64,000 bases of DNA from an uncultured Anaerolineales bacterium (lineage in GTDB: Bacteria > Chloroflexota > Anaerolineae > B4-G1 > SLSP01): positions 23,216 through 87,215 of the forward strand of contig CAZCTC010000023.1 of the NCBI GenBank assembly GCA_964501335.1. The letters run 5' to 3'. Positions 34,095 through 60,608 of this stretch are shown in pieces (positions within the stretch are counted from its first letter, which is position 1; every line of letters starts with the position of its first letter). Position numbers and translations under genes: made by a program. The notes beneath the pieces are model-generated. The model was given only the letters and a program-made list of their open reading frames with translations, had not been told where the DNA came from and did no database searches.

Positions 34095-34276
34095 CCATCC
34101 CGCGCGTCACTTTTTTACCAGGAAAGTAATGGTTGCGGGACGCTAAAAAAGCTAATCGCACAGGTCGAAAAAAACCCTATTTTTGCGCGCATTCTTATGC
34201 GCGCAAAAATACAAACAAAAAACTCTCTCCATCCCGCGCGTCACTTTTTTACCAGGAAAGTAATGGTTGCGGAACG
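34095..34276 (+). repeat. Mosaic repeat tract: motif-B copy, CGCACAGGTCG block, R2 hairpin, second motif-B copy
   Basis: 48-bp direct repeat CCATCCCGCGCGTCACTTTTTTACCAGGAAAGTAATGGTTGCGG(G/A)ACG at 34095-34142 and 34229-34276 (1 mismatch). Hairpin TATTTTTGCGCGCA/TGCGCGCAAAAATA at 34178-34211. Confidence 0.9.
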
Positions 34277-34337
34277 TAAAAACTGTTTTTAATCTATGAA
34301 AATGAACAATCGCATCGGTCGATAAATTTCGGCCTTG

Positions 34338-34346
34338 TGCTATAAT
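34338..34346 (+). promoter_or_regulatory. Candidate extended -10 promoter element upstream of the PAS/GAF kinase
   Basis: TGCTATAAT (TGn + TATAAT). The -35 is weak. Lies about 130 nt upstream of the ATG at 34477. Confidence 0.35.
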
Positions 34347-34476
34347 AAATCAGAGATTGCGCAGGCTTCTCTCTCCATAAAACACTCCCAACCACACTAT
34401 AAATGCATTCGTGCATAGAACCGGTGATCTTTCACCCTGTGCTCATTGATAAAATACAGAGGCGTGCGAAAATAGC

Positions 34477-37400
34477 ATGGAGCCATCATCATTCCCCCCC
34501 TCAAACGAAACAGAGTGCCCGCAAAATTCTTTCACCCCACTTCCCGCCGAAAGAATCTTGGAAGCACTGGATGTTTTAATAGTTGTCATCGATTCCCGGG
34601 GCCGGATTGTGGATCTCAACCAGGCAGTCGAACAAAAAACCGGCTATGCCCGGCAGAATTTAATTGGGAATTATGTCTGGGAAAGCCTCTTGTGGAAAAA
34701 CCTGCCCCCATCTCCGCGTCTGGAAGCGATGCAAGCCGCCCTGACAGATCCCCTTTCCGCAACCATCTTCCCGGCTCAAATCACGCAGTATCTCGCGGGC
34801 CCCGGCGACCGCACCCTCATTCAATGGTCGATCCGCGCAGCCTTTGATGCCGATCAACATATCACCCACTACATCGGCACCGGCTTTGATATCACCCATC
34901 AACATGAATCCGAAACCGTCCTGCGCCGCCAAAATCAGGGACTGAGCCTCCTTACCCATGCCGCCCAGGCGCTCACCTCCAGCCTGGAAATGGATCGGGT
35001 CATGGCTTCTATCCTGGATGAAACCTGCCAGATCCTCGATGTTCTGGCCTGTTCAATCTGGCTGCTCAATGAAGAAACCGGTCAACTGGTCTGTGAACAG
35101 GCCAGCGGGCCGCAAAATGAACAGGTCCGCGGGTGGAAACTGGATCCCGGGGTAGGCATCGCCGGATGGGTCGTCGAACATGGACAAAGCCTGATTGTGG
35201 CCGATGCCCAAAACAACATCTACTATTTTCCCAATGTGGGAATCCACACTGGATTGGATCTCCGCTCTATCCTCTGTGTCCCCTTGCGCGGAAAACATAA
35301 AATCATCGGCGTGCTGCAAGTCATGGATCGTACCGTAGGGCGTTTCGATGCCACTGACATGTCTTTAATGGAATCCCTGGCCGCCTCCGCCTCCGCCGCC
35401 ATTGAAAATGCCCGCCTCTTCGCCGAAACTCACCAACGGGCCCATCAAATGGCCACGCTTAACCGCATCGTCCAGCAACTCAATGCGGCTCTGAGCACCA
35501 CCGATATCTTCAAGGTTTTGGCAACCGAATTGACGGCCTTGATCCCATGCGACCAGAGTTGGGTCGGTCTGCTGGACTCAACCCACGAAGCCCTGATCCT
35601 GCATTTTCTGGAAAACCAACCCGATCTCAACGCCGGCCTGCGCTGGCCGCTGGATCTGGCCTCCTGGGGTAAAAATCTGCTGCAAGGGGAAATTTCGCTC
35701 ACCCCGGAACTTCTCCAAAATGCCGATTTCCCCTACGATCGCTGGCTCTATGCAGCCGGCCACCGTTCGCAACTGATCGCTCCGCTGCAACTCGGAGAAC
35801 GCATTATCGGGGCCTTGATCCTGGCCGCTACCCGAACTACGGCTTATCTGGAATCCGATCGCCAATTGATCCATCAACTGGCCGGCACAGTAGCCGCCGC
35901 CCTGAACAATGCGCTGCTTTTTGAAGAAACCGAACGATTGAAAACGTTCAACGAACAAATCGTGCAAAACATGGATGAAGGGATCTTGATCTGTAACGAT
36001 CTGGGGCAGATCACCTTCGTCAATCCCAAGATGGCCGAAATCCTGGAAACCTCCCCCGATTCTCTGATCGAGCAATATTGGGAATCGCTCCTGCCGCCGC
36101 AAGATCTGGCCCAGGTACGTCCCGAAATCCTCGTGCGCCCCCCCCTGCGCACCGGCTATTACGAAACCAATCTAAAAACCTCCCGGGGAACCCTCCTGCC
36201 CATCCAGGTCAATGCCACGCCCCTCACAGCGACCTCCGCCCCTGGCGGAGTCTTATCGGTCATCACCAACCTGGCCCCCCGCCGGCAGGCGGAAGCCGCA
36301 GTTCAGGCCATCTTTAAAGGCACCGCCGCCACCGTCGGACGCGCCTTCTTTGAATCTCTGGTCATGGAACTGGCTACCGTATTACAGGTTCGAGCGTCCT
36401 TCATAACACTCCCCATCTCTATAGAAACCGGCGATTTACAAACGATCACCATCTGCCTGGACCGTACCATCATCCCCAATCGCCGTTATAACTGGGCCGG
36501 TGCTCCCTCCGAATTTATGTTCAAAACCGGGCAACCTTTTTATACCGATAATCTCAAAGCCCATTTCTCATGGTCCTTATTGTCTGAGGAAATCGACGCC
36601 CAAAGTTTTATGGGAATTCCCCTCTTTTCAGCAGAAGGGAAACCGCTGGGAATGCTGGTCATTACCCATGATAAGCCCATTAGCGATCCGGCCCTGGCCC
36701 ACACGTTGCTCTCGATCTTCGCCGCCCGCGTAGGCGTGGAACTGGAACGCATGGCCGCAGAAGAAGCCCTGCAGGCCAGTGAATTGCGCTATCAGGGAAT
36801 CATCGAAGATCAGCTGGAAGTCGTTGTCCGCTTTACCCTTGACGGCAAATTGACCTTTGCCAACCGGGCTGCCTGTGAATGTTTCGGGTTGGACCCGGAA
36901 ATGCTCGCCGCCTACGATTACCGCGAAACAGTACCCGAAACTTCCCGCGAATTCCTGCACCAGCAACTCCTCGCCTTAACCCCCGACAATCCGGTGTTGA
37001 TCGGAGAAAATGTCAATATCGATGCCCGGGGTGATCACCGTTGGATGCGCTGGTCCAACCGGGCTATCTTCAACGACCGGGGAGAAATCGTCGAAATTCA
37101 ATCGCTGGCCCTGGATATCAGCGACCGCAAACAAATGGAAGAAGCGCTCCGGGAATCCGAAGAGCAATATCGCCTGATGTTTGAAACCATGCTCAACGGT
37201 TTCTCTCTCCATGAAATGATCTTCGATGAAAATGGCCGGCCCAGCGACTACCGCTTCCTGGCCATCAACCCCGCCTTTGAAAAATTCACCGGCATTTCGC
37301 CCGATCGCGCGATCGGACATCTCATGTCGGAAATAATTCCCGACCTGGACCCCATCTTCCTGGAAAATTACGGCCGGGTAGCCATAACCGGCATGCCCTT

Positions 37401-39747
37401 CCATTTTGAAGCTTATGTTCCCCAATTGGGACGCCACTACGAAATCAATGCGTACAGGCCCAAACCCGGTCACTTCGCCACCATCTTCAGCGATGTCACC
37501 CAACGGGTTAAAATGTTCGAGGCTTTACAGGCTTCAGAAGAACAGCTCTCCCAAATCGTCGAAACCACCCCGGCCGGCATTATCAAATTCGACATCCATG
37601 GCCGGATTATCTTTGCCAATTCAGCGGCAGAAACCATCCTGGAACTGCAGCGCAACGACCTGCTGGGCCAGACTTACTACGATGGACAATGGGAAATTAC
37701 CACCCTCAACGGTGAGCCCTTCCCGGAAAGCCGGATGCCCTTCGTTCAAGTCCTGCAAACAGGAATCCCCGTCCACAATATAGAATTCTGTGTCCAACGG
37801 TCTCAAGGGCACCCGATCTTCCTTTCCGTTAACGCCGCTCCCTTGAAAGATGCCGAGGGAAAACTGACCGGCGTCCTGGCCGTGCTCAGCGACATCACCG
37901 AAACCCGCCGGACCGTGGAAACATTGCACATCTCCGAAGAAAAATTCCGCCGCATCGTCGAAACCGCCCGCGAAGGGATCTGGACTCTCGACAAGACCGG
38001 CCGCACCAACTTTGTCAATCATCAGGTAATCGAATTGTTAGGCTACCAGCCGGAAGAAATCCTGGGCCGCCCCTTCTTCCATTTCGTTCCGGAAGAGGAT
38101 CGTCCGGATTTCGCTCACGACCCGCAGCATGCCCCCCGGATCGCCTCAGGAAAATTCGAACAACGACTGCTGCGCGCCGACGGCAGCGAAATCTGGGGGT
38201 GGGTTTCCTCCACAGGCATCCGAGATGAACAGGGTCATTTTAACGGCATGATCGCCATGATCACCGATATGACTGAATACCGTCAGGCCCTGGAAAACGT
38301 GCGCCAGTCCGAACAAAAATTCCGCACACTCTTCGACTCAGTCGCCGACGCCCTCTATATTTTCGATAGCCGGGGACACTTCCTGGAAGTCAATCAGGTC
38401 GCCTGCGAACAGTTGGGCTACACCCACGAAGAGATGCTGAAACTCTCCCTCTTTGACATCAACGATCCCCAGGCCCAGACCAACACGACCAACCGTTTAA
38501 ACCGTGTCCTCAGCCAGGGACGGATCTTTGCCGAAACCGTTCACATCCGGCGCGACGGCACCCGGATCCCGGTAGAAATCAACAGCCGCACGCTGCTCTA
38601 CGAAAACCAGCTGGCGATCTTCAGCAGTGCGCGGAATATCACCGAACGCAAGCTGGCCGAAGCCGCCATGCAGGAACAGGAAGCCCAATACCGCATCGTC
38701 ATTCAGACAGCTCTCGATGGTTTTGTGGCACTCTCCACCCAGGGCCGCATCCTCGACCTCAATGATTCCTTTGCCCAGATGACCGGCTACAATCGGCGAG
38801 AACTGACCGGCATGAACATTCACAATCTGGACAATGGCATGACGCTCGAAACCCTCCACCGAAAGATAGAAAAAATCATCACGGTAGGTCAGGATCTCTT
38901 TGAAACCCGGTTGAAATGCAAAGATGGACACGAAATCGATGTCGAAGTCAGCGCTCACTACATGAAAACCCAAAGCCAGGGGCTCCTGTTCTGTTTTGTG
39001 CGCAACATCAGCGAACGCAAACGCAACCAGGAAATTCTTCTGCGCACCGAACGTCTGGCCGGTATGGGACGGATGGCCGCCGCCCTGGCCCACGAGATCA
39101 ACAATCCTCTGCAATCGATCGGCAGCAGCATGGAACTGGTCCTGGACTTCCCCCTGCCAGAAACCGAAAAAGCCGAATACCTTCACAATGTCCGCACCGA
39201 AATCGATCGGCTGAAAACCCTCACCCACCGCATTCTGGATTTTGCCCGCCCGCCGCGACTGGAACGCCATATGGTCCAGGTCACCGACATCCTGCAAACA
39301 ACGCTGGCCTTCGCCGGCAAACAACTCCAGCACAGTCGGATTCAAATTTCCACCGACTTGGCCGCCGATCTGCCTCAGATCTCCGGAGCTTCCGCTTCAT
39401 TGTCCCAGGTCTTCCTCAACCTGATCCTCAATGCCGCCGAAGCCATGCCCGAGGGCGGTCAACTGCTCATCTCCGCCCGGGCCGAAGAAGAGCAAATCCG
39501 CATCACTTTCACAGACTCCGGTCCCGGACTGACCTACGATGTCCAACAACAGATTTTCGAACCCTTCTTTACGACAAAAACCGACGGAACCGGCCTGGGA
39601 ATTCCGATCAGTCATAGCATCATTCAACAACACGGAGGAAAATTGCTCGCCGAAAATGCTCCCTCAGGCGGAGCCTGCTTTATCATCCTGCTCCCCATCG
39701 CCCCCCCCCTTATGACCCTGTCTGAAGAAGACATAGCTTTATTATGA
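34477..39747 (+). CDS. Large (1756 aa) cytoplasmic multi-PAS/GAF sensor histidine kinase
   Basis: Several PAS/PAC modules (repeated SE(E/L)(Q/R)YR boundaries), GAF segments, H-box MAAALAHEINNPLQSI, HATPase (DSGPGL...GTGLGIPIS). Confidence 0.9.
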   Translation: MEPSSFPPSNETECPQNSFTPLPAERILEALDVLIVVIDSRGRIVDLNQAVEQKTGYARQNLIGNYVWESLLWKNLPPSPRLEAMQAALTDPLSATIFPAQITQYLAGPGDRTLIQWSIRAAFDADQHITHYIGTGFDITHQHESETVLRRQNQGLSLLTHAAQALTSSLEMDRVMASILDETCQILDVLACSIWLLNEETGQLVCEQASGPQNEQVRGWKLDPGVGIAGWVVEHGQSLIVADAQNNIYYFPNVGIHTGLDLRSILCVPLRGKHKIIGVLQVMDRTVGRFDATDMSLMESLAASASAAIENARLFAETHQRAHQMATLNRIVQQLNAALSTTDIFKVLATELTALIPCDQSWVGLLDSTHEALILHFLENQPDLNAGLRWPLDLASWGKNLLQGEISLTPELLQNADFPYDRWLYAAGHRSQLIAPLQLGERIIGALILAATRTTAYLESDRQLIHQLAGTVAAALNNALLFEETERLKTFNEQIVQNMDEGILICNDLGQITFVNPKMAEILETSPDSLIEQYWESLLPPQDLAQVRPEILVRPPLRTGYYETNLKTSRGTLLPIQVNATPLTATSAPGGVLSVITNLAPRRQAEAAVQAIFKGTAATVGRAFFESLVMELATVLQVRASFITLPISIETGDLQTITICLDRTIIPNRRYNWAGAPSEFMFKTGQPFYTDNLKAHFSWSLLSEEIDAQSFMGIPLFSAEGKPLGMLVITHDKPISDPALAHTLLSIFAARVGVELERMAAEEALQASELRYQGIIEDQLEVVVRFTLDGKLTFANRAACECFGLDPEMLAAYDYRETVPETSREFLHQQLLALTPDNPVLIGENVNIDARGDHRWMRWSNRAIFNDRGEIVEIQSLALDISDRKQMEEALRESEEQYRLMFETMLNGFSLHEMIFDENGRPSDYRFLAINPAFEKFTGISPDRAIGHLMSEIIPDLDPIFLENYGRVAITGMPFHFEAYVPQLGRHYEINAYRPKPGHFATIFSDVTQRVKMFEALQASEEQLSQIVETTPAGIIKFDIHGRIIFANSAAETILELQRNDLLGQTYYDGQWEITTLNGEPFPESRMPFVQVLQTGIPVHNIEFCVQRSQGHPIFLSVNAAPLKDAEGKLTGVLAVLSDITETRRTVETLHISEEKFRRIVETAREGIWTLDKTGRTNFVNHQVIELLGYQPEEILGRPFFHFVPEEDRPDFAHDPQHAPRIASGKFEQRLLRADGSEIWGWVSSTGIRDEQGHFNGMIAMITDMTEYRQALENVRQSEQKFRTLFDSVADALYIFDSRGHFLEVNQVACEQLGYTHEEMLKLSLFDINDPQAQTNTTNRLNRVLSQGRIFAETVHIRRDGTRIPVEINSRTLLYENQLAIFSSARNITERKLAEAAMQEQEAQYRIVIQTALDGFVALSTQGRILDLNDSFAQMTGYNRRELTGMNIHNLDNGMTLETLHRKIEKIITVGQDLFETRLKCKDGHEIDVEVSAHYMKTQSQGLLFCFVRNISERKRNQEILLRTERLAGMGRMAAALAHEINNPLQSIGSSMELVLDFPLPETEKAEYLHNVRTEIDRLKTLTHRILDFARPPRLERHMVQVTDILQTTLAFAGKQLQHSRIQISTDLAADLPQISGASASLSQVFLNLILNAAEAMPEGGQLLISARAEEEQIRITFTDSGPGLTYDVQQQIFEPFFTTKTDGTGLGIPISHSIIQQHGGKLLAENAPSGGACFIILLPIAPPLMTLSEEDIALL

Positions 39748-39751
39748 GTTC

Positions 39752-39936
39752 GAAAAAAGCTGTATTTTTGCGCGCAAAAATACCAATAAAAAATCGACCT
39801 GTGCGGTTAGGCTGAGAAAAAAGCCCATATTTTCGGCGGCTTTCTGAAGCCGCCGAAAATATGAATAAAAATAATTCTCTCTGCCTGCTTCGCACGACGC
39901 GGCGATTCTCAGCGGGAAGGTACCAGTTGCGGGACG
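39752..39936 (+). repeat. Mosaic repeat tract: loop-less R2 palindrome, GACCTGTGCGGTT block, R2 hairpin, motif B
   Basis: GTATTTTTGCGCGCAAAAATAC (39762-39783). CATATTTTCGGCGGCTT-TCTG-AAGCCGCCGAAAATATG (39826-39863). Motif B at 39884-39936 ends 20 nt before the RR start codon. Confidence 0.9.
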
Positions 39937-39956
39937 CTAAATAGAAAGTTGCATTC

Positions 39957-40778: not shown

Positions 40779-40801
40779 CGAAGAAGCAAAAATCTCCCCG
40801 A

Positions 40802-40867
40802 GGGCGGCCACATCGGGCCGCCCCTACCCAAATGCCGCCAATGTAGGGGTACCCCTTGTGGGTACCC
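40802..40867 (-). repeat. REPIN-like inverted palindrome doublet (R1), copy a
   Basis: GGGCGGCC-ACATCG-GGCCGCCC-CTAC...GTAG-GGGTACCC-CTTGTG-GGTACCC. Starts 24 nt after the RR stop. One palindrome carries the paired change GGGCGCCC to GGGTACCC. Confidence 0.85.
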
Positions 40868-40885
40868 AATCCTGACAAATCGTCT

Positions 40886-40937
40886 ATTTTCATCCTTCGG
40901 GGTGCCGCCCCCCGCATGGCCTTCTGTCCTGAAAATA
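40886..40937 (+). repeat. R5 repeat, copy 1
   Basis: ATTTTCATCCTTCGGGGTGCCGCCCCCCGCATGGCCTTCTGTCCTGAAAATA. A near-identical second copy lies at 41228-41277. Confidence 0.9.
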
Positions 40938-41060
40938 GCCCCGTCTAAGGTGCGACGCACTTTCTATCCCTAGAACCACCGATTCAAACGGACCCATCTG
41001 AAGGCAAGTCGCCTGTCCTTGCAAGATCAGAGTGCGTTGCACCTCTTTAGAAAATCACCC

Positions 41061-41222
41061 TCACCCGCACAAAGCCCCTCTCCTGTAAGTTGCGCCGCGC
41101 TGGATCGGAAGAGAGAGTTTTTTTGTTGATGTTTTGGTGCGCCTCAGAAGGCGCACCAAAACATAGGCTTTTTCAGAGCCGCACAGGCGACGCAGGCTGT
41201 CTACTTGCCGCTGTCTACTTCC
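41061..41222 (-). repeat. Mosaic repeat tract in inverted orientation: motif B, R2 hairpin, CTGTGCGG block, GTAGACAG block
   Basis: Reverse complement reads GAAGTAGACAGCGGCAAGTAGACAGCC...CGCCTGTGCGGCTCTGAAAAAGCCT-ATGTTTTGGTGCGCCT-TCTG-AGGCGCACCAAAACAT-CAACAAAAAAACTCTCTC...ATCCAGCGCGGCGC...CTTTGTGCGGGTGA. Confidence 0.85.
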
Positions 41223-41227: not shown

Positions 41228-41277
41228 ATTTTCATCCTTCGGGGTGCTCCCCTGCATGGCCTTCTGTCCTGAAAATA
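41228..41277 (+). repeat. R5 repeat, copy 2
   Basis: ATTTTCATCCTTCGGGGTGCTCCCCTGCATGGCCTTCTGTCCTGAAAATA. Differs from copy 1 only in the central G/C segment. Confidence 0.9.
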
Positions 41278-41541
41278 AGCCGGGGCCTTTAACGCAGAGT
41301 CGCAAAGTTGCAGAGGCGCAGAGCCAGAGAAAATAATCTATCCCTCTCTGCGTCTCTCTGTGATCTCTGCGCCTCTGTGGTGAAATCTCTTTCTCCTCCT
41401 TCCAGGTGCCGCCCCCTGCAAGCTTTTGCAAACAATTGCAAGCACCGCCCTCCCTCTCTTCCGTTAAAATTAAACATACGTTGTCATAGCATTATCGTCA
41501 CGCCCATCATTGGCGCCCCAGGTCCAAATCGAGGATCAATC

Positions 41542-42087
41542 ATGAAACACACAGCAGATGCACTTAAATTCGCTTCGGGGAATTTGCTGACGTTCCGGAT
41601 GGGACCCCAACATTACGCCCTGCCGATTGAAACAATCGTGCGCGTCATCGAAATGGTCACCATCGCCCCCCTGCCGCAAGTCGATCCCAGCGTTGTCGGC
41701 GTGATCAATGTCAACGGCGCCCTGGTCCCGGTCGTCGACCTCCGCCGGCATCTGCACCTTCCCGAAATCCCCTGGGACCTGCATACCCCCATCATCTTGA
41801 TCCGTCTCGACCCCCAAACCATCGGACTGATCGTCGATGAGGTTTTAGACATTCTCGAACTGCCGGCAGATCAACGCATCGCGCCGGCCGCCATCCTCCC
41901 GGCCACCCTCGGCCAGATCTCCGTCCTGCAAGGCCTCCTTTATCATGAAGGAGCCACCCTGTTGATTCTGGACAGCTCCCGCCTCTTCGACCCGCAACAG
42001 GCCGGCCTGCTCGCCGAAGCCACGACCTTTCTGACAAAGGCCCCTCCGGAACCTGCCGCGGAGAACGCCGATGCCCACAACACCTGA
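41542..42087 (+). CDS. cheW: CheW-like coupling protein
   Basis: LLTFRMGPQHYALPIETIVRVIEM...VVGVINVNGALVPVVDLRRHL. GAGGA RBS lies before the ATG at 41542. The 41308 ORF extension runs through repeats. Confidence 0.85.
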   Translation: MKHTADALKFASGNLLTFRMGPQHYALPIETIVRVIEMVTIAPLPQVDPSVVGVINVNGALVPVVDLRRHLHLPEIPWDLHTPIILIRLDPQTIGLIVDEVLDILELPADQRIAPAAILPATLGQISVLQGLLYHEGATLLILDSSRLFDPQQAGLLAEATTFLTKAPPEPAAENADAHNT

Positions 42088-43810: not shown

Positions 43811-43825
43811 TTACAAGAGGAAAAT

Positions 43826-50787: not shown

Positions 50788-50789
50788 TA

Positions 50790-51197: not shown

Positions 51198-51211
51198 GGA
51201 AGGAGGGTCCC

Positions 51212-53551
51212 ATGTCCCTCAGTGCACAAATTCGGGCACAATTGATCAATAGCTTTCGGGCAGAACTCGCCGAACACATCCAAACGATGACGGACGGCCT
51301 GCTCGCCCTGGAACAACATAAACTTACTCCCGAGCAGGAACCGGAAACGCTCCAGAGCCTCTTCCGTGCCGCCCATAGCCTTAAAGGCGCCGCCCGTGCC
51401 GTCGGTGTGACCGCCATCGAGCAGTTGGGCCACGCCCTGGAAGATGTCCTGGACAGTCTGCAACGCCGTCGGCTCACTCCCACACCAGAACTCTTCTCAG
51501 CCTGCTATCGCACATTGGACACCATCCAGGTGGTCCAGACCGCCTATGAAGCCGGCGCGATCACCCCTCCGATTCAGGTCCTGCAGGCACTCACGGCGCT
51601 GGAACCCTTCCAAAGCAACGCCGCTCCGGCCGGCGACCCTCCAGCGGCGAAAGCGGAAAACGGCGGAGATCCCCCGTCCAATCAAACTCCGGCTCAACCC
51701 CCTGTACCGCCAACTCCACCGGCACCGCCCACACCTCCGGCCTCCAGCCCGGCGCCCGTGCCCGCCGCCAACAACGACACCATCCGCATCCATGCCAGCA
51801 AACTGGATGCCCTGCTCGCCCAGTTGAGTGAATTGCACGTCGCCCGGATTCGCGCCGAACAACGCACCGTCCAGGTCCATCAGGCCCAGGAAGAAATGAG
51901 CCAGTGGCAAAAAGAATGGCTGTCCGTCCGCGAAAGCTACAACCGTCTGGTCCGCCGCTCTGCCAATCGCACCGGCGAACGCGACACCCTCACCCTTCAT
52001 GACACAGACCGACTGCTGGCCTATCTGGAAAACAGCCAGGAACGGCTCCACGAAATGAGCTCCCTGGTCAATCATCTGGCCCGCGAATACAGCAACGACT
52101 CCATGCAACTCTCCATGGCCATCGACGCCCTGGAAGAAGATGTCAAACGGGCCCGCCTGCTCCCACTCAGCACCATCACCGCCCCCTTCGGCCGAATGGT
52201 GCGCGATCTCGCTCAGACCTCCGGAAAATCGGTAACCCTGCAAATCATCGGCAGCGATGTCGAACTGGATAAACGGGTTCTGGAACAGATCAAAGATCCC
52301 TTGATCCATCTGCTGCGCAATGCTGTCGATCACGGCATCGAAACAGCAGAACAACGCACCGCCGCCGGAAAATCGCTCAACGGCCGCATCGTTCTCAAAG
52401 CCGAACAGGCCGGCAAAGAGATCCTCCTCACGGTCAGCGACGACGGAAACGGCCTCAATCTCGAATCCATCCGTCAGGTCGCCGCCCAGCGCGGCCTGGG
52501 CGATCCCGCCGCCATGAACGACGCCGACCTGGCCGAAGTGATCTTCCATGCCGGCGTCTCCACCAGCCAGACAGTCACCGACGTTTCGGGACGCGGCGTC
52601 GGCCTGGATGTGGTCCGGCGCAATGTCGAAGCCCTGCAAGGCCGGATCGCCGTCACCTGGAAAGCCGGAGCCGGTTCGACCTTCACCCTGACCCTGCCCC
52701 TCGCCCTGACCAGCTCCCGGGCCCTGATGGTCAAAGCCGCGCAGCAATCCTTTGCCATTCCGGTCGGCGCCATCGAACGGATCGTACCGGCCGGCCGCGA
52801 ACAGATCCTCTCCGTCGGCGGCCATGAAACCCTGCAATACAACGGCCGCCCACTGCCGGTCGTCCATCTTTGCGATGTCCTCAACATCCCCCGCAACGGG
52901 GAGATGCACAACGACGGACGCTTCACCATCCTGATCCTGGCCTCCGTCGAACGCAAAATGGCCTTCGTCGTCAGTGAACTGGTCGGCGAACAGGAAGTGG
53001 TCATCAAAGGGCTCGGCCGTCAGATCCAACGGGTCAACGGAATCGCCGGCGCCACCATCCTCGGCAACGGAGACGTCCTCCTGATCCTCAATGTCGGGGA
53101 TCTGATCAAACTGGCGCTGCGCAGTGAACGGCGAGCCATCGTGACCACCAACGGAGAAACCGGCAACGTTTCCTCTCCAACCGCCACCAAACAGATCCTG
53201 ATCGTGGATGATTCCATCACCACCCGCACCCTGGAAAAGAACATCCTCGAAGCCGCCGGTTTTGTCGTCTGGGTCGCCACCGACGGGCAGGAAGCCCTTT
53301 CCCACATCATGGAAAACGGCCTGCCCGACCTGGTCATCTCGGATGTCTCAATGCCGCGCATCACCGGCGTCGAACTGACCCGCCACATCAAAACCGACCC
53401 CCGCACCGCGGCCATTCCGGTCATCCTCGTCACCTCGCTCGACTCGCCGGAAGACAAAGCCCGCGGCATCGAAGCCGGCGCCGACGCCTACATCATCAAA
53501 AGCCATTTCGACCAGGACAACCTCCTGGAAACTATCCATCAATTGATTTGA
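51212..53551 (+). CDS. cheA: CheA histidine kinase with a fused C-terminal receiver and a Pro-rich linker in place of P2
   Basis: Hpt FRAAHSLKGAARAVG. Linker PPVPPTPPAPPTPPASSPAPVP. HATPase (HLLRNAVDHGIE, SDDGNGL, GRGVGLDVV). CheW-like P5. REC (ILIVDDSITTR...VISDVSMPRITG). Confidence 0.9.
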   Translation: MSLSAQIRAQLINSFRAELAEHIQTMTDGLLALEQHKLTPEQEPETLQSLFRAAHSLKGAARAVGVTAIEQLGHALEDVLDSLQRRRLTPTPELFSACYRTLDTIQVVQTAYEAGAITPPIQVLQALTALEPFQSNAAPAGDPPAAKAENGGDPPSNQTPAQPPVPPTPPAPPTPPASSPAPVPAANNDTIRIHASKLDALLAQLSELHVARIRAEQRTVQVHQAQEEMSQWQKEWLSVRESYNRLVRRSANRTGERDTLTLHDTDRLLAYLENSQERLHEMSSLVNHLAREYSNDSMQLSMAIDALEEDVKRARLLPLSTITAPFGRMVRDLAQTSGKSVTLQIIGSDVELDKRVLEQIKDPLIHLLRNAVDHGIETAEQRTAAGKSLNGRIVLKAEQAGKEILLTVSDDGNGLNLESIRQVAAQRGLGDPAAMNDADLAEVIFHAGVSTSQTVTDVSGRGVGLDVVRRNVEALQGRIAVTWKAGAGSTFTLTLPLALTSSRALMVKAAQQSFAIPVGAIERIVPAGREQILSVGGHETLQYNGRPLPVVHLCDVLNIPRNGEMHNDGRFTILILASVERKMAFVVSELVGEQEVVIKGLGRQIQRVNGIAGATILGNGDVLLILNVGDLIKLALRSERRAIVTTNGETGNVSSPTATKQILIVDDSITTRTLEKNILEAAGFVVWVATDGQEALSHIMENGLPDLVISDVSMPRITGVELTRHIKTDPRTAAIPVILVTSLDSPEDKARGIEAGADAYIIKSHFDQDNLLETIHQLI

Positions 53552-53553
53552 CT

Positions 53554-53737
53554 TATATTTTCGCGCGCGCCAGAGGCGCGCGCGAAAATATAATAAATAC
53601 AAAAATACAGTTAACCCGGAAAAGTGGAAAAAGAGCCTGTGTTTTGGCGCGTTTTCTGAAGCGCGCCAAAACACCAAAAAAATTCTCTCTCCATCCAGCG
53701 CGGCGCTCTTGACCGGAAAAGTGCCATTTGCGGGACG
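53554..53737 (+). repeat. Mosaic repeat tract: two R2 hairpins plus motif B
   Basis: TATATTTTCGCGCGCGCC-AGA-GGCGCGCGCGAAAATATA (53554-53592, begins 3 nt after the cheA stop). GTGTTTTGGCGCG...CGCGCCAAAACAC (53639-53674). Motif B at 53691-53737 ends 39 nt before the cheY ATG. Confidence 0.9.
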
Positions 53738-53776
53738 AAAAAAGCAGTTTTCAACCCGAAAAAATAAGGGGTAAAT

Positions 53777-54148
53777 ATGTTAACCATCCTGATGATCGAA
53801 GACAGTCTCGTACAGGGAGAGCTCACCCAGGACTTCCTCGGCCAATACGGCATCCAGGTCAAATGGGCCCAAAACGGCGAAGAAGGTCTCTCGCTCGCAG
53901 AAACCGAAATGCCCGACTTCATCCTGCTGGACCTGGAAATGCCCGGACTCAGCGGCTTTGACGTCTGCCGCCAGCTGAAGTTCAATTCCGCCACGGCCGC
54001 AATCCCGGTCATCATCCTCACCGCGCACACCGAACTGCCGGCCGTGCGCGAGCTGCTGAACCTGGGCGCCATCGACTTCATTCCCAAAGATGCCTACTCT
54101 CATCAAGTGCTGGTCGAAACCCTGCGCCAACTGGGAACGGAGATCTGA
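53777..54148 (+). CDS. cheY: CheY-like single-domain response regulator
   Basis: ILMIEDSLVQGEL...ILLDLEMPGLSGFD...ILTAH...IPKD. Confidence 0.9.
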   Translation: MLTILMIEDSLVQGELTQDFLGQYGIQVKWAQNGEEGLSLAETEMPDFILLDLEMPGLSGFDVCRQLKFNSATAAIPVIILTAHTELPAVRELLNLGAIDFIPKDAYSHQVLVETLRQLGTEI

Positions 54149-54149
54149 A

Positions 54150-55214
54150 ATGGACTCCGGTCCGCTCCCCCTCAAACCGGTGCGGGTCGTGGTGGTAGAC
54201 GATTCTCCCACCATGCGCGGCCTGCTGGTTGCCATGCTCGAAAGCGCCGGTCAAATCCAGGTCGTCGGAATCGGTGAAAACGGCGAAGATGCCGTTCGCC
54301 TCACCCAGCGCATGCGTCCCGATGCTCTGGCCATGGACATCACCATGCCCAAAATGGACGGGCTGGAGGCCACACGCCAGATCATGCGCGAGATTCCCAC
54401 GCCCATCATCCTCATCTCCGGCTCGCGCGTTCAAAAAGATATCAACCTGACCTTTGAAGCGCTGCAACTGGGCGCCCTGGCCGTCGTTGAAAAACCCGGC
54501 CTGGAAAACACCCGCGCCTGGGAAGATCTCATCCGCACCATCCGATTGATGTCCGCAGTTCCCGTGGTCCGCCGCTGGGACAACAGTCGTCCGACCAGCG
54601 TCCCGGCTTTCCCCATGGCCACCGCCCGGGCTACCATTAACGAACGGCCTCAGATCATCGGTATCGCCGCCTCCACCGGCGGCCCGGGCGTCCTGGCCAC
54701 CATCCTGGGAGGGCTTTCCGCCGACTTTCCCCTCCCCATTCTGATCGTCCAGCATGTCACGCCGGGCTTTGCACAGGGCTTGGCCGAATGGCTGAACACC
54801 CAGACCCCCTTGCAGGTACGGCTGGCCGTCCACGGCGAAACGCCCCGCAGCGGCACCGTCCTGCTGGCTCCCGACGATTGCCATCTGCGCATCAACGAAC
54901 GCAACCTGGTGGAACTGAGCAAAGATCCGCCCTACAAAAAATTCCGGCCTTCCGCCAACTATCTTTTCGGCTCCCTGGCCCAATATTACGGGGCCCGCGC
55001 CGTCGGCATTGAACTTACCGGCATGGGAGACGACGGCGTGGAAGGCTTGCTCGCCCTGCATCGGGCCGGCGGCCATACGCTGGCTCAGGATGCAGAAAGT
55101 TCGGTCGTCTATGGAATGCCGCAAGAAGCCGTCTTACAAAATGCCGTCGATGAAATTCTGGCGCCGACCCAAATCACCGAGTGGCTCAATCAATTAGTAG
55201 CCCGACTCAAATAA
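54150..55214 (+). CDS. cheB: CheB protein-glutamate methylesterase (REC plus CheB_methylest)
   Basis: VRVVVVDDSPTMRGLL...AMDITMPKMDGLE. Catalytic domain IIGIAASTGGPGVL...LTGMGDDGVEGL. The ATG at 54150 lies 1 nt after the cheY stop. Confidence 0.9.
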   Translation: MDSGPLPLKPVRVVVVDDSPTMRGLLVAMLESAGQIQVVGIGENGEDAVRLTQRMRPDALAMDITMPKMDGLEATRQIMREIPTPIILISGSRVQKDINLTFEALQLGALAVVEKPGLENTRAWEDLIRTIRLMSAVPVVRRWDNSRPTSVPAFPMATARATINERPQIIGIAASTGGPGVLATILGGLSADFPLPILIVQHVTPGFAQGLAEWLNTQTPLQVRLAVHGETPRSGTVLLAPDDCHLRINERNLVELSKDPPYKKFRPSANYLFGSLAQYYGARAVGIELTGMGDDGVEGLLALHRAGGHTLAQDAESSVVYGMPQEAVLQNAVDEILAPTQITEWLNQLVARLK

Positions 55215-55215
55215 C

Positions 55216-55431
55216 CAGGCTGGAAAACAAGAGGAAAAACTATGTTCTCGCGGGCTTTCCGAAGTCGCTCCAAACATAAATAAAAATCGACCTGTGCGGT
55301 CAGCCTGGAAAACAAGAGAAAAAGCCATGTTTTCGCGGGCTTTCCGAAGCCCGCGAAAACATAAATAAAAAAAATTCTCTCCTCCCATCCAGCGCGGCGC
55401 TTTTTACCAGGAAATCATCGAGTGCAGGACG
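55216..55431 (+). repeat. Mosaic repeat tract: ~90-bp tandem duplication (decayed plus intact R2 hairpin) and motif B
   Basis: Decayed hairpin at 55241-55278. GACCTGTGCGGTCAGCCTGG block. Intact ATGTTTTCGCGGGCTT-TCCG-AAGCCCGCGAAAACAT (55327-55362). Motif B at 55385-55431. Confidence 0.85.
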
Positions 55432-55511
55432 TAACAACTGGCGGTTAAGCAGACCGACGAACCACCACACAGATTGTCAAAAAATTCAGAGGCCCTCCAG
55501 GAGGCTATGCT

Positions 55512-56243
55512 ATGGGCAAAAAACAGGTCTTAATTGTCGATGATGAATTACAGGTGGCACGGGCCTTACGTGCCGCCCTGGAAAGCCGCTTGGGGACCAA
55601 ATGTCAGGTCGAAATCTCCAATGACCCCATGGAAGCCATGGAGAAATTGAAAAACCAGCATTACGATCTCCTGGTAACGGATCTACGTATGCCGGGGATC
55701 AATGGCATGGACCTGTTAAAATATGCCCATAGCCACGATCAAAACCTACGCGCCATCCTGATCACCGCCTTCGGCTCTCCCGATCTGGAACAGAAAGTAC
55801 AGGAATTGCAGGCCCAATATATCCCCAAACCTTTCAATCTGCAGGATTTCATCGTCATCACCCAACAATTACTGGAAGACAACCGCCCTCAGATCATCAT
55901 TCTGGTCAACGGGGATCCCGACGTCATCAATGCCCGTCAAAAGGTACGTGAAGTAGCCCGCACCCTCGGCCTGAACGTCACCGATCAGGCCCGCATCTCC
56001 ATGGCCACCTCATCCATTGCCTACGCCCTCAAAATGGGCTCCACGCACGTCGGCCAGATCCGCATAGAATGGATCGTAGACACCCAGGGCCGGGGCATCC
56101 GCGTCACCTGCACCACCACCGACGGCAAATCGATCGAACTGCCGCCTTCCGCCGTAAAAGATGTCGCCTGGATGGTAGATCAACTGACCGTCGATCCGCT
56201 ACCATCCCAGAACACCCAGGTTGTACTGATCAAATACGTATAA
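55512..56243 (+). CDS. Response regulator with a C-terminal RsbW/SpoIIAB-like (degenerate HATPase-like) domain
   Basis: REC (VLIVDDELQVARAL...LVTDLRMPGINGMD). C-terminal ~115 aa (DVINARQKVREVARTLGLNVTDQARISMATSSIAYALKMG...GIRVTCTTTDG) resemble anti-sigma-factor kinases but lack clear G-boxes. Confidence 0.55.
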   Translation: MGKKQVLIVDDELQVARALRAALESRLGTKCQVEISNDPMEAMEKLKNQHYDLLVTDLRMPGINGMDLLKYAHSHDQNLRAILITAFGSPDLEQKVQELQAQYIPKPFNLQDFIVITQQLLEDNRPQIIILVNGDPDVINARQKVREVARTLGLNVTDQARISMATSSIAYALKMGSTHVGQIRIEWIVDTQGRGIRVTCTTTDGKSIELPPSAVKDVAWMVDQLTVDPLPSQNTQVVLIKYV

Positions 56244-56253
56244 AGAGGGCCCC

Positions 56254-56628
56254 ATGAGCAAACTAGCACTGGTGATTGAAGACAGCGAAACTCAGGCCTG
56301 GCATCTGAAAACCCTGCTGGAAACGGCCCAGATGGCGGTCGATCTGGCCTACAACGGCACCGACGGCTTTGAGCTGGCCCAGATGAACCATCCGGAAGTT
56401 ATCATCCTGGATGTCCAGTTACCGGATATGAACGGCTTTCAGGTCTGCCAGCATCTCAAAGAATTACAGGAAACCGCCGAAATCCCGGTCATCATGCTGA
56501 CCCATCAGGAGACCCACGAAGCCGTGGTGGCCGGTTTACAGGCCGGGGCCGTCGAATTCATCCCCAAAGACGCCTTCGCCGACGCCGTCCTCATCGAAAC
56601 CCTCAAACAGATGGGATTGTTGGAATAA
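56254..56628 (+). CDS. CheY-like single-domain response regulator (second copy)
   Basis: LALVIEDSETQAWHL...IILDVQLPDMNGFQ...MLTHQ...IPKD. Paralogous to 53777-54148. Confidence 0.9.
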   Translation: MSKLALVIEDSETQAWHLKTLLETAQMAVDLAYNGTDGFELAQMNHPEVIILDVQLPDMNGFQVCQHLKELQETAEIPVIMLTHQETHEAVVAGLQAGAVEFIPKDAFADAVLIETLKQMGLLE

Positions 56629-56631
56629 GAA

Positions 56632-56904
56632 GAAGTAGAGAGCAGCAAGTAGACAGTAGACAGCAAAAACCCGCCTGTGGGGTTGGTCTGGAAAAAAGCC
56701 CCTGGTTGCGGCGGCTTCAGAAAGCCACCGCAACCAGGGATAAAATAACCTCTCTCCTCCTGCTTCGCACCGCGCGGCGCTTTTCACCAAACAAAAGCCC
56801 TGTGCGGGACGTTAAAACGCCAACCGCACAGGTCAAAAAAACATTTTTTCGCACGCCGCAGACGGCGTGCGAAAAAATGAATAAAAACAACCCTTTGCGG
56901 GACG
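56632..56904 (+). repeat. Mosaic repeat tract in a convergent gap: GTAGACAG block, CCTGTGGGG block, two R2 hairpins, motif B, truncated motif B
   Basis: GAAGTAGAGAGCAGCAAGTAGACAGTAGACAGC (56632-56664). Hairpin at 56700-56739 (loop CAGA, one C/A mismatch). Motif B at 56759-56811. CCTGTGCGG/CCGCACAGG stem (56799-56807 and 56824-56832). Hairpin at 56842-56879 (17-bp perfect). CTTTGCGGGACG at 56893-56904. Confidence 0.9.
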
Positions 56905-56916: not shown

Positions 56917-57654
56917 CTATTCCAGAGAAGACATCGTCGCATTCGCCGTATTCGTCACCGCGTGCGGTCGCCGCCCCAACACCCCCCATCCCAGCAGCAG
57001 CATCCCCACCCCAATCAACATCACCGGCCCCATCAAACTCCCCAACCACCAGAAATCAGAAAGGATCAACGTCATCCCCCCAAACCCCACCGCCGCAATC
57101 ACGCACAAAATCAACCCGGCCACCACCAATCCCGAAGAACGCTTCCCCAAAGCCAGCGCCAGCAGCGCCAGCCCGACCGCCAGCGGCTCCGCCGCCCACA
57201 ACCAGGCCCAGGCGCCCCACCAGCCGGTCAATCCACAGAAAAGGAAAATCAGACCGTTCACCCCGATAATAATCGCCGGCACCACCAGCCCCCAGGTACG
57301 CATCCAGAAAGCCGCCGCCAGAAACCCTACCGCCAGCGCCAGCACCTCAAAGGACCACATCCAGCTCCAGGCGCCCCACAAATGCGTCAGATTGGTAAAG
57401 CTGAGGATCATTCCCGTCGCCAGAATCGGAAATCCCGGGATGAAAAGGCCGCCCAGGCCCCGATTGCTCATATTCAAGAAAGGCCCACCGACAAAAGCCA
57501 ACCCGACCATTACCACCACACTCGGCCAGAAGAAAGAAACCGCCGAACCGATCAGCGAAAATCCCAGGAAAGGAAAACCCCACATCGCCCCCAGCCCCAT
57601 CAGGCCGAATACAATCAAAAGTCCACCCACCAACAACGATCCCTTGCGTTCCAT
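56917..57654 (-). CDS. Polytopic integral membrane protein with repeated GWW/WGAWxW motifs
   Basis: ~8 predicted TM helices. AAGGAG RBS lies before the ATG at 57654. The segment VVPAIIIGVNGLIFLFCGLTGWWGAWAWLWAAEPLAVG is paralogous to the C-terminal TM region of the adjacent Ser/Thr kinase. Confidence 0.75.
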   Translation of the reverse strand: MERKGSLLVGGLLIVFGLMGLGAMWGFPFLGFSLIGSAVSFFWPSVVVMVGLAFVGGPFLNMSNRGLGGLFIPGFPILATGMILSFTNLTHLWGAWSWMWSFEVLALAVGFLAAAFWMRTWGLVVPAIIIGVNGLIFLFCGLTGWWGAWAWLWAAEPLAVGLALLALALGKRSSGLVVAGLILCVIAAVGFGGMTLILSDFWWLGSLMGPVMLIGVGMLLLGWGVLGRRPHAVTNTANATMSSLE

Positions 57655-57714
57655 CTTTTTTCTCCTTGATTTCTTACGTTGCGACACTCCGGTCACAACC
57701 ATTTAAAAGACTTG

Positions 57715-59235: not shown

Positions 59236-59278
59236 GGCATCCTCCCTTGATCGTCCCGGCACTCTGTCGTTTTTTAAT

Positions 59279-60073
59279 CTAATCTCCCAGCTGTGACATC
59301 CGCCCCGACCCGGCGATCCGGGAATCCACCTTCGGTCGGCCGCTGTAATAGATGTTGCCGCTGCCCATAATCGACCCGTCGAGCGATTCCTTCACCGCCA
59401 GCGTCACAGAACCGCTGCCCATCACCTGCGCGCTGGCCGAATCGCTGGACATCTCACTGCCGCGATAGTTGCCCGAGCCCATAATCGTCACCGTCTGCTG
59501 ATCCACCGCGCCGCCTTCGATATTGACGTTTCCCGAGCCCGGAATCGAAACCTCCAGCGCATCCCCATCCACCTGGCCCACCGTAATGGAACCGGACCCC
59601 GCCAGATTGATCTCGGTATTGTCCGCTGCCACCCCGTCGATATTGACATCGCCCGAGCCGGCCAGTCGCACATCGAAAGACTTCGCCGTCAATTCCGGCG
59701 CATCGATCGAGCCGCTGCCCGTAAGGATCACCGCATCCAGCGACTTCACGGTGACATAGAACTTCACCGGCTGCGTATGCCTGAAGATCGTCCCCGATTC
59801 CGTACTGATCACCAGTTTTCCATTATGGACTTCGGTGTGGAGGTAAGGGAGTAAATTGTCCTCAGCCTCGATCTTTAGCGACTCTTCGTCCCCCACCGTG
59901 ATGATCACATCCCCAAACGTGGCATTTTCCAACGAGGTGAAATCCTTAACCGCGCGCTCTTCCTCGACCACATGGCCCGATCCCCGCACGCCGACCATGG
60001 CGCACCCCACACTCAACACCAGCATCCCCAGCAACAACAGGCCGATCATCATTTCCCGTAACATCGCATCCAT
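59279..60073 (-). CDS. DUF2807 / head-GIN-domain lipoprotein-like protein
   Basis: Signal/lipobox-like N-terminus (LLLLGMLVLSVGCA). Eight GSG(S/D/N)(I/V/Y) beta-helix repeats. Confidence 0.8.
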   Translation of the reverse strand: MDAMLREMMIGLLLLGMLVLSVGCAMVGVRGSGHVVEEERAVKDFTSLENATFGDVIITVGDEESLKIEAEDNLLPYLHTEVHNGKLVISTESGTIFRHTQPVKFYVTVKSLDAVILTGSGSIDAPELTAKSFDVRLAGSGDVNIDGVAADNTEINLAGSGSITVGQVDGDALEVSIPGSGNVNIEGGAVDQQTVTIMGSGNYRGSEMSSDSASAQVMGSGSVTLAVKESLDGSIMGSGNIYYSGRPKVDSRIAGSGRMSQLGD

Positions 60074-60182
60074 CCTCCTTTGAAGTTTGGAGCGTTCCCG
60101 CTCACGAGTATAGAATACCTCGCCCCGGGAAAAGATACCTATCGGTCGGCTATCAATCAGCTAACAAAAATCCATCATCCAG

Positions 60183-60608
60183 AGCAGACAGCAGCAAGTA
60201 GACAGTAGACAGCCATTAAAAAAGCATTTTTTGCCTGGAACCCGCTCCATGCCGGGCGCCCCACAAAAAATGCTCTAAAATGAATGTTAGCGCGCACAAC
60301 TTCTGGGATCAAGGACGGCCACATCGGGCCGCCCCTACAAAAAGGCCCTCTGATGTAGGGGCGCCCCTGCGTGGGCGCCCTAAACTGGCCTGATAAAACC
60401 ATTTCTGTTAAAACACCCCGGCCATGTCCCATCCCTTGTGCACGCTAACAAATAAATCATCTCTGCGGTGAGCCTGGAAAAGCGGGAGAAAAAAGCCTGT
60501 GTTTTTGCGCGCATAAGAATGCGCGCAAAAACACAAACAAAAAAAACGTTCTCCCCCCATCCAGCACGTCTATTCTTCCTGTCTACTGTCTACTTGCTGC
60601 TGTCTACT
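60183..60608. repeat. Composite repeat tract bounded by inverted GTAGACAG blocks (MITE-like outline)
   Basis: AGCAGACAGCAGCAAGTAGACAGTAGACAGC (60183-60213) and its reverse complement (60579-60608). Interior: R2-type stem with a 30-nt insert (60224-60273), R1 doublet plus leader in reverse orientation (60312-60435), CTCTGCGGTGAGCCTGG block, R2 hairpin (60499-60534), truncated motif B (60558-60571). Confidence 0.85.

Follow-up and report, generated by a model that had tools for sequence, protein, structure and literature searches.

Dispersed hairpin-bearing repeats form mosaics in the intergenic gaps of a chemotaxis operon from an uncultured Anaerolineales bacterium

Gene context and repeat tracts

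We analyzed a stretch of 64,000 nucleotides (hereafter, the window) of the genome of an uncultured Anaerolineales bacterium (GCA_964501335.1, contig CAZCTC010000023.1, positions 23,216 to 87,215). Its + strand carries a chemotaxis (che) cluster (41308-56628) which encodes CheW, CheR-TPR, CheW, CheR, two methyl-accepting chemotaxis proteins (MCPs), CheA-REC, REC, CheB, and two REC proteins, and which is preceded by a giant PAS/GAF kinase and a response regulator. The gaps between these genes are occupied by short repeats. These belong to a mosaic which is restricted to the lineage, extends genome-wide, and combines linker modules with at least two families of repeat elements. Between 34 and 61 kb there are, by our tally, ten intergenic gaps of 100 nt or more, and every one contains modules of this mosaic, against one of eight, with a decayed copy, between 1 and 34 kb. 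Ten tracts and one decayed copy had been proposed from a sequence-only reading; sequence reading, a repeat finder, and alignments place repeats at all of these sites, although the limits had been drawn too tightly and several tracts reach further (e.g., to ~34322, 48021, 51167, and 55475).

The dominant repeat, which we call U, is about 130-190 nt long and consists of five parts: an A-run, a perfect hairpin of 15-19 bp, another A-run joined by a CT tract, a box of conserved sequence (CCAGCGCGKCG-N-TGCGGGACG) and, often, inverted 13-nt ends (GACCTGTGCGGTT ... AACCGCACAGGTC); copies with both inverted ends measure ~163-192 nt. The consensus runs (GACCTGTGCGGTYAGCC..GAAAAG), A5-6GCC, a 15-19-bp stem with a 4-8-nt loop, AAYAAAAAA, (A/T)TCTCTCYCC, (ATC or TGCTTCGCAC), CAGCGCGKCG, ~28 nt, TGCGGGACG, and YTAAAAA, and similarity among the copies stops at CTAAAAA or runs on into other repeat modules. 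The most conserved parts (A-run/GCC, GCGCG.CG, and TGCGGG) are internal rather than terminal. A profile hidden Markov model (HMM) built from 23 copies gave 16 non-overlapping matches in the window, each a copy or a fragment. Of these, 15 lie on the + strand, and the single - strand match (41064-41204) is the only inverted copy, as had been noticed before. Unit motif patterns had 4 and 6 matches in the window and none in shuffled sequences. As the reading had also held, the tracts are devoid of coding signal; the open reading frames (ORFs) called across them merely translate the repeats, which are small, non-coding, and multi-copy in the manner of miniature inverted-repeat transposable elements, or MITEs.

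Several modules are joined to U, namely GTAGACAG blocks, a 55-nt X box, GTAG-tagged doublets of repetitive extragenic palindromes (REPs), and, in longer copies, a right-hand extension (CAAAAACCGTTTTTAATCC...AACAACCGCACAGGTCG) common to copies at the loci L134, L225, L227, and L230 (L numbers denote loci on other contigs, described below). The recurrent order, X - GTAGACAG block - terminal inverted repeat (TIR)-like block - hairpin - CT tract - box - extension or X - REP doublet, is present in the window as well as in L138, L223, L225, and L228-L230, and constitutes a mosaic of extragenic palindromes and motifs of the kind known as bacterial interspersed mosaic elements (BIMEs). The order of modules, the two full units in tandem (~50848-51141), and a short tandem, which proved to be 85 nt long (55216-55371), had been described correctly. 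The list of modules itself needed revision, as there are more than the five counted initially, including the X box (40886-40943 and 41228-41277) and the right-hand extension. The GACCTGTGCGGTT block exists; it occurs in both orientations (34154-34166 and 56822-56834), and because this first block recurs inverted at the far right end of the longer copies, it is TIR-like. The pieces noted as GGGCGCCC..CTAC and GTAGGGGCGGCC are likewise real and are GTAG-tagged REP doublets of a separate, younger family. The repeat features of the window are as follows.

1127-1204, + strand: decayed copy of hairpin and A-run between two + genes (HMM 23.8 bits); the orthologous gap in L143 is 50 nt, with no hairpin
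34082-34151, + strand: partial unit with CT tract and CCCGCGCGTCAC..TTGCGGGACG box (HMM positions 89-157), 92% identical to 34222-34282
34154-34166, - strand: inverted TIR-like module (TAATCGCACAGGTCG; sequence reading and fuzzy match)
34162-34322, + strand: full unit (hairpin 34178-34211, perfect 15-bp stem; HMM 93.3 bits), its right extension ending in a degenerate inverted TIR
39752-39793, + strand: hairpin-only module (palindrome 39762-39783) abutting the kinase stop codon (inverted-repeat search and sequence reading)
39792-39944, + strand: full unit with left TIR (39796-39808), hairpin (39826-39863, perfect 17-bp stem, fold z-score -6.9), CT tract, and box (HMM 121.1 bits)
40786-40943, - strand: element resembling a REP doublet forming a hairpin (REPIN), with X box (40886-40943) and GTAG-tagged REP doublet (40802-40867), 100% identical over 158 nt to L223:18623-18780
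41064-41222, - strand: the sole inverted unit (hairpin 41129-41164; HMM 104.5 bits on the - strand, terminator scan, and fold) with GTAGACAG block (41190-41222)
41228-41277, - strand: solo X box, 92% identical to that of the 40786-40943 element
43640-43672, + strand: GTAGACAG block (repeat family)
43679-43820, + strand: full unit (hairpin 43712-43742; HMM 92.1 bits) of a short-loop subfamily found also in L136
47775-47841, no strand assigned: GTAG-tagged REP doublet with facing heads and a 15-nt spacer (repeat family)
47869-48021, + strand: full unit (hairpin 47881-47918; HMM 128.1 bits) with extension and degenerate right TIR, a 97% duplicate of 51005-51161
50721-50787, no strand assigned: GTAG-tagged REP doublet (repeat family), 92% identical to 47775-47860
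50789-50843, + strand: partial unit with CT tract and start of the box (HMM positions 83-132)
50848-51003, + strand: full unit (hairpin 50888-50923; HMM 126.7 bits), missing, by comparison of the two tracts, from the paralogous one behind the first MCP gene
51011-51167, + strand: full unit (hairpin 51027-51064; HMM 128.2 bits) with extension
53553-53593, no strand assigned: hairpin-only module with a perfect 19-bp stem, starting 2 nt past the cheA stop codon (inverted-repeat search)
53605-53748, + strand: full unit (hairpin 53638-53673, fold z-score -4.5; HMM 116.8 bits)
55226-55286, + strand: decayed hairpin module, first copy of the 85-nt tandem (HMM 29.6 bits)
55289-55475, + strand: 187-nt element with both TIR-like ends (hairpin 55327-55362; end search, HMM 131.4 bits)
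56631-56669, + strand: GTAGACAG block, 97% identical to the reference copy 43639-43677
56672-56834, + strand: 163-nt element with TIR-like sequence at either end (hairpin 56703-56739, fold z-score -8.6, with the loop flipped to TTCAGAAA)
56835-56904, + strand: hairpin-only module (56842-56879) and TTTGCGGGACG fragment (inverted-repeat, HMM, and motif searches)
60180-60214, + strand: GTAGACAG block (repeat family)
60313-60380, no strand assigned: GTAG-tagged REP doublet in the opposite orientation to the one at 47775 (sequence reading and motif match)
60458-60579, + strand: unit truncated in the box (hairpin 60498-60535, loop flipped; HMM 72.4 bits) between two - genes, with the T-run on their sense strand
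60578-60608, - strand: inverted GTAGACAG block (sequence reading and motif match)

Repeat modules often start 0-10 nt after the stop codon of the upstream gene (39745-39760, 53551-53553, 55214-55216, 56628-56631, and 8501/8502 in L223). The stop codon at 39745 lies inside sequence homologous to the junction of TIR and A-run, and the repeat element may there supply the end of the kinase gene.

The perfect hairpin and its flipped loops

In the 23 copies, 98.9% of the cells of the long hairpin were paired, and both-sided changes were seen in 11 of its 16 pairs. Its covariation lay above that of all 500 shuffles (0/500 reached the observed value), and no slid register came close. Perfect stems of at least 13 bp were found in 55 of 65 full units (85%), 49 of these 55 being 16-18 bp long, at an overall identity among units of ~75%. 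Fold energies of the hairpins are -22 to -38 kcal/mol, and their z-scores range from -4.5 to -8.7.

The tetranucleotides of the loop occur in both orientations, TCTG (most copies) against CAGA (8 copies) and TCTT (5) against AAGA (4), so that roughly a fifth of the copies carry a flipped loop. Flipping of this kind is expected when the two arms of a DNA palindrome recombine or when template switching takes place between them, a process which would also copy changes from arm to arm. Since the loops are flipped, compensatory changes can arise at the DNA level; the covariation which had been suggested as a check exceeds every shuffle and yet is no proof of selection on a structured RNA. Upkeep of the palindrome at the DNA level explains the pattern with the same likelihood as RNA selection does. 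The conserved box is conserved as sequence, with an invariant outer helix, an inner helix that is only 65.8% paired, and no convincing covariation. The small hairpin once drawn in this box is therefore unsupported, and a structured-RNA model of the box was dropped as the pair counts give it no support.

Terminator shape and orientation of the units

On the bottom strand of U the hairpin is extended by G-U pairs and is followed directly by a C and five or six U residues (CUUUUUU). This shape of an intrinsic terminator, a GC-rich hairpin plus a U-tract, is present only on the bottom strand. In a terminator consensus scan of 39.7-57 kb, nine of the ten intact family hairpins were terminator-like on the bottom strand only (the exception being 53638-53673), and the inverted unit (41129-41164) was the sole terminator-like match on the + strand. 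This sense-facing hairpin sits between the upstream kinase/regulator pair and the first cheW, and from its position a transcription-unit boundary at this site is plausible. Within the che operon, the T-run is on the antisense strand in all eight occupied gaps. The adjoining - genes at 60498-60535 have the T-run on their sense strand, and many copies on sister contigs are placed behind operons, likewise with a sense-facing T-run (L224 after 5805, 9983, and 12581; L223 after 8501). The pattern would fit a one-way terminator that operons do not tolerate in its polar orientation. Elsewhere, the genome has canonical terminators (6718-6750 and 9270-9320) and a canonical sigma-70 promoter (TTGACA-17-TATATT near 5230, ~5230-5265).

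Two strict orientation rules were tried and rejected. A replication-strand rule as in IS200/IS605-like elements had an early tally of 23:6, which fell to 32:17 with more loci, the loci L229 and those of the co20 metagenome-assembled genomes (MAGs) being reversed; a gene-relative rule failed at 19:11.

REP doublets and the X box, a younger element

The window contains four GTAG-tagged head-to-head doublets (40802-40867, 47775-47841, 50721-50787, and 60313-60380). With GTAG, an 8-bp stem, and a 6-nt loop, the doublets, and in the mosaic only these, have the properties of GTAG REPs and of inverted doublets and clusters. Both GTAG- and CGTC-tagged REPs, their dimers, and their clusters are known across phyla, including Chloroflexi (PMC3733652). 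The 158-nt element made up of X box and REP doublet at 40786-40943 is, apart from its identical copy in L223, 87-92% identical to seven full-length copies elsewhere, and L223:18141-18780 is a four-copy tandem array of X box and doublet, with copies 87-100% identical to the window element. This degree of identity suggests that the REPIN-like element has been mobile recently. With true GTAG REP doublets in the mosaic and a four-copy cluster, the analogy to BIMEs is apt for this component. A further hairpin with a large loop (GCATTTTTTG ... CAAAAAATGC) lies at 60226-60275 between a GTAGACAG block and a REP doublet; it was seen at this site only and is outside the unit family.

Distribution beyond the window

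CheA, CheB, and RpoD of the window are matched by Anaerolineae MAGs only, the best matches having ~60% amino acid identity for the Che proteins and 88% for RpoD. The contig (101 kb) carrying the CheB of the window is present in NCBI, JGI, and Logan, and an identical 1.9-kb Logan contig with this CheB (SRR6476076) stops within a family hairpin.

A search with a specific hairpin pattern found full units in binchicken_co20_77, an Anaerolineaceae MAG, and on one contig from a Geobacter bin (co20_405), with 2-6 units per 4.5-8-kb locus (L133, L134, L136, and L138). The Geobacter-binned locus L136 (CAZHVY010000024.1, Geobacter sp. binchicken_co20_405) is an 8-kb stretch with six full units, and its contig is probably mis-binned. 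Because gene callers translate the repeats, a protein collection was searched with a profile of the unit translations, which returned 26 spurious 'proteins', the contigs being 42-272 kb long; eight of them were looked up, and each came from JGI sample 3300022666. Units lie beside unrelated genes both on further long contigs of one JGI assembly (at least 19, at ~0.3-0.4 per kb) and in Anaerolineaceae MAGs other than that of the window, and are not confined to the locus. In the annotation, at least 26 'hypothetical proteins' of this sample (30-95 aa; P0121-P0146) are translations of repeats, as is the window ORF 50743-51063 (- strand).

Eight loci of 14-20 kb from the JGI sample (L223-L230) gave 61 HMM matches in 147 kb. 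After subtraction of the eight matches that led there, the density is ~0.36 units per kb, against 0.25 per kb in the window. For a genome of a few Mb, this would mean copies numbering on the order of a thousand, which together make up a few per cent of the sequence, an estimate which carries ascertainment bias and is not a count. From a similar GC content, a skew of similar size at seven of the eight loci, and the 158-nt element that is 100% identical in L223, we infer that the JGI contigs belong to the organism of the window.

No unit was matched in 1.24 Mb around rpoD of 80 other Anaerolineae genomes, the closest relative L143 included, or in the che loci of relatives L121-L129. Presence and absence differ between genomes, as the earlier reading had asked to be checked. 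L143, at ~70% nucleotide identity, is syntenic with the window over 1-18 kb and has a gap of just 50 nt at the site of the decayed copy 1127-1204. The genes of the che operon are in the same order in L121 and are separated there by 3-134 nt, against 225-522 nt in the window, and the short gaps of this relative imply that the tracts are additions to an ancestrally compact operon. Within the window, the tracts after the two paralogous MCP genes differ by ~200 nt which contain the unit 50848-51003.

The modules are also uncatalogued, and the mobile or structured interpretation withstands the refutation criteria set out in the earlier reading. Rfam had no match at gathering thresholds in the whole window and only chance-level matches at E<=1 in 39.7-61 kb; BLAST against plasmids and phages gave no match; the hairpin pattern was absent from viral contigs, and the pattern of hairpin plus CTCT from the scannable JGI metagenome contigs. 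When the GC-rich box pattern alone was used in a collection scan, it returned only chance matches from high-GC genomes. In the literature, we found no paper on such repeats in Anaerolineae, nor one mentioning the sample or the run.

Other features of the window

The + strand of the window is C- and A-rich irrespective of gene direction (GC skew -0.16 to -0.24). A strong compositional skew (|GC skew| 0.15-0.27), independent of gene direction, extends over the window (1-64000) and L223-L230, and the C-rich strand carries long runs of genes, among them the che cluster here and most genes of L226 and L227. The two MCP paralogues contain in-frame 273-nt tandem repeats (46029-47001 and 49001-49970) which are arrays of HAMP_2 domains, one pair of repeats being 97% identical between the two genes. 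Directly upstream of the second MCP gene and of cheA, past the duplicated tail of the repeat tracts, lie runs of three to four copies of the heptamer ACGTTTT/ACGTTTC (48035-48058 and 51175-51197). After the last tract of the che cluster, ORFs overlap on opposite strands (56917-57702, - strand, 261 aa; 56962-57669, + strand, 235 aa), with no Pfam match. A gene for a 656-aa M23 peptidase (9856-11826) has no counterpart in the otherwise syntenic L143, which is a gene-level indel between the genomes.

Interpretation and alternative explanations

We consider it probable that the tracts are insertions and local re-duplications of lineage-specific, genome-wide, non-coding, and non-autonomous modular repeats of a BIME/MITE-like nature. 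For the spread of U and its effect on transcription, the sequences suggest the following course. The units would have been spread by a trans-acting enzyme, which could be a transposase that binds the TIRs for U and an enzyme of the Y1 or REP-associated tyrosine transposase (RAYT) type for the REP doublets; further copies could then have been added through local tandem duplication and recombination. Arm-to-arm conversion at the DNA level would keep the palindrome perfect and would also flip its loop. The hairpin may act as a one-way terminator or insulator, in which case only copies with an antisense-facing T-run would have survived in the che operon, such that the 15-kb operon is presumably still read through. 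Its mRNA would then carry stable hairpins, which may be sites of processing or stability in the way that REPs are in the operons of E. coli.

Several observations weigh against this interpretation. The copies of U have a median pairwise identity of 75%, with ~92% for the best pair between loci and never near-identity, and there is no sign of recent movement. Identity is equal within the genome (75.0%) and between genomes (75.2%, co20 loci), and the best pair between genomes (90.8%) exceeds the ~71% of the one coding gene that is common to the window genome and a co20 locus. These figures make U an old repeat that has been conserved or else renewed continually, and conservation by function would fit the equal identities at least as well as selfish spread. 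When the 65 units were searched for GACCTGTGCGGT and ACCGCACAGGTC with up to 3 mismatches, TIR-like ends were found on the left in 25, on the right in 20, and on both sides in only 10 (nine of 163-192 nt and one of 255 nt). The flanks of nearly all complete copies are A-runs, in which a target-site duplication is indistinguishable from an A-rich preference or from element sequence. A mobilizing enzyme, whose search had been proposed, was not found either: Pfam scans gave no transposase, including Y1_Tnp/RAYT, in the large ORFs of the window, the genes called at the eight JGI loci (147 kb) include no annotated transposase, and no autonomous insertion sequence (IS) with the same ends was found in ~240 kb of the lineage. 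As for orientation, the co-orientation with flanking genes noticed at the outset holds in the window (15:1 by strand) but is no rule at other loci, where we tallied 19 co-oriented and 11 anti-oriented units in tandem gene pairs, and is thus a local feature. Relative to GC skew, our tally of 32:17 is a weak excess on the C-rich strand. Neighboring copies tend to share their orientation, so local copying could also explain the ratio of the window, and with orientation only loosely tied to genes and skew, the argument that polar insertions were purged rests mainly on one operon.

The figures on identity also speak for a domesticated U, a reading that is rather unlikely all the same. U would then no longer be selfish, or would never have been so; it would be cis-acting punctuation under purifying selection, inherited vertically across Anaerolineaceae genera, and would combine a one-way terminator or insulator with a box for a host protein. 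Conservation that is highest internally and not at the ends, the 85% of stems that are perfect, the many copies at operon ends with a sense-strand T-run (L224 and L223), and the failure to find a transposase are in favor of this reading. It accords poorly with the many truncated, tandem, or decayed copies (1127-1204, 55226-55286, 50789-50843, and 60458-60579), the mixed orientation relative to genes, the flipped loops, the inner helix of the box that is not conserved as structure, and the lack of any copy in 21 kb of syntenic L143 DNA or in the other Anaerolineae loci scanned. More doubtful still is the full form of this reading, a host-maintained, vertically inherited element in which a directional terminator or insulator hairpin and a protein-binding box (GCGCGKCG...TGCGGGACG) would be conserved across genera above the level of coding genes, with the palindrome kept by a dedicated hairpin-processing activity that is neither a RAYT nor a known transposase. 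Were it true, the family would be a genome-wide cis-regulatory or architectural system and not selfish DNA.

That U is itself a REP and the tracts are strict BIMEs, the palindromes being moved as single-stranded DNA by a RAYT (Y1 HUH) encoded elsewhere in the genome, we regard as very unlikely. Genuine and apparently recently active GTAG doublets in the same mosaics, the report of GTAG REPs in Chloroflexi (PMC3733652), perfect palindromes and flipping loops that suit DNA hairpin biology, and the slight C-rich-strand excess are all in keeping with it. However, the U hairpin has A5-6GCC in place of a GTAG or CGTC head, its stem of 15-19 bp compares with 5-13 bp (GTAG) and 8-9 bp (CGTC) in REPs (PMC3733652), and over 100 nt of U are conserved without being palindromic; the weak strand bias is reversed in L229 and the co20 loci, and Y1_Tnp was absent from the window ORFs and the annotated genes of the eight JGI loci. 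It is harder still to credit that each unit is a bottom-strand small RNA gene, a multi-copy small RNA or a type I toxin-antitoxin-like family whose terminator would be the hairpin and U-tail. The U-rich stretch, strong hairpin, and U6 tail do resemble the 3' module of Hfq-type small RNAs, and an ATG in the hairpin arm after GGGAGAGAG opens the same peptide start in several copies. Nevertheless, similarity ends at CTAAAAA or continues into other modules, and promoters failed as a candidate: sigma-70 and sigma-54 elements were sought on both strands by consensus reading, with no conserved -35/-10 in or beside the unit, and a promoter scan was at background (6 found against 5.3 expected). A small ORF was rejected as well, because the ATG column is not conserved (G 14, A 7, T 2) and the stems covary with compensatory changes that would scramble the peptide. 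Finally, segmental duplication within the signaling locus alone could be read from 47859-48015 and 51005-51161, which are 97% identical and travel with the paralogous MCP genes, and from the 85-nt tandem. With most window copies only 65-85% identical to one another, and units dispersed far beyond the locus beside unrelated genes, this reading is refuted.

Repeat content, mobile DNA, and transcription signals are little known in Anaerolineae, a group abundant in sludge and sediments and mostly uncultured. At about one copy per 3 kb, the family would do much to shape the structure of operons, the breakage of assemblies, and mis-annotation in these MAGs. The coexistence in the same mosaics of an old, hairpin-centered U and a young REPIN-like element makes a natural system which could help to separate selfish spread from the domestication of terminator-like palindromes.

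Comparison with known systems

The principle is not new, as REP/BIME, MITE, and BOX-type elements cover the concept; the family itself is uncatalogued. Integron attC arrays were set aside since the genes beside the units form an ordinary che operon, whose gene order recurs in relatives, and since by inspection the units have no attC-like core sites, and so were retrons and omega-RNAs, which are single-copy gene-linked RNAs.

The tracts resemble the REP/REPIN/BIME elements of Proteobacteria, which are linked to RAYTs, in being extragenic, high-copy, palindromic, and clustered in mosaics, often after stop codons and within operons. The analogy to BIMEs drawn at the outset is valid for the mosaic and literally so for the GTAGGGGCGGCC..GGCCGCCC pairs, which like REPINs are GTAG-tagged, head-to-head doublets with 8-bp stems. 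It does not extend to the dominant U, which fits neither the GTAG nor the CGTC class of REPs: its stem is longer and perfect, A5-6GCC precedes the hairpin with no adjacent GTAG, and inverted 13-nt ends accompany it. The CGTC REPs have an 8-9-bp stem, a 4-5-nt loop, and a CCA tail (Di Nocera et al. 2013, PMC3733652). The box of U is similarly bracketed by CGTC/GACG, starting with GCGCGTCG and ending with GGGACG, but is no such REP, as its inner helix is far longer and incompletely paired and its loop is irregular.

Correia elements of Neisseria (CREE/NEMIS) have reported effects on termination and RNA processing. Like these elements and other MITEs, U is ~100-200 nt long, non-coding, intergenic, bears TIR-like ends in some copies, and would be present in hundreds of copies co-transcribed with their neighbors. 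It differs in that its hairpin is an internal perfect palindrome rather than paired TIRs, that both ends are retained in a minority of units, and that the TA target duplication of Correia elements has no visible equivalent. No IS is known to be related to U, which fits the definition of a MITE only in part. BOX elements of Streptococcus pneumoniae are built from a few boxes in fixed order with variable repetition and are intergenic with stable folds. The tracts share this modular build; the sequences and modules are unrelated, and BOX is not known to have a terminator-shaped perfect palindrome or TIRs. The bottom strand of U, with its 15-19-bp GC-rich stem followed by C and U5-6, is in turn like an intrinsic terminator such as the genome's own at 6718-6750 and 9270-9320, from which it is set apart by a hairpin that lies within a repeated unit of 130-190 nt and, in the window, mostly faces the antisense strand of the flanking genes.

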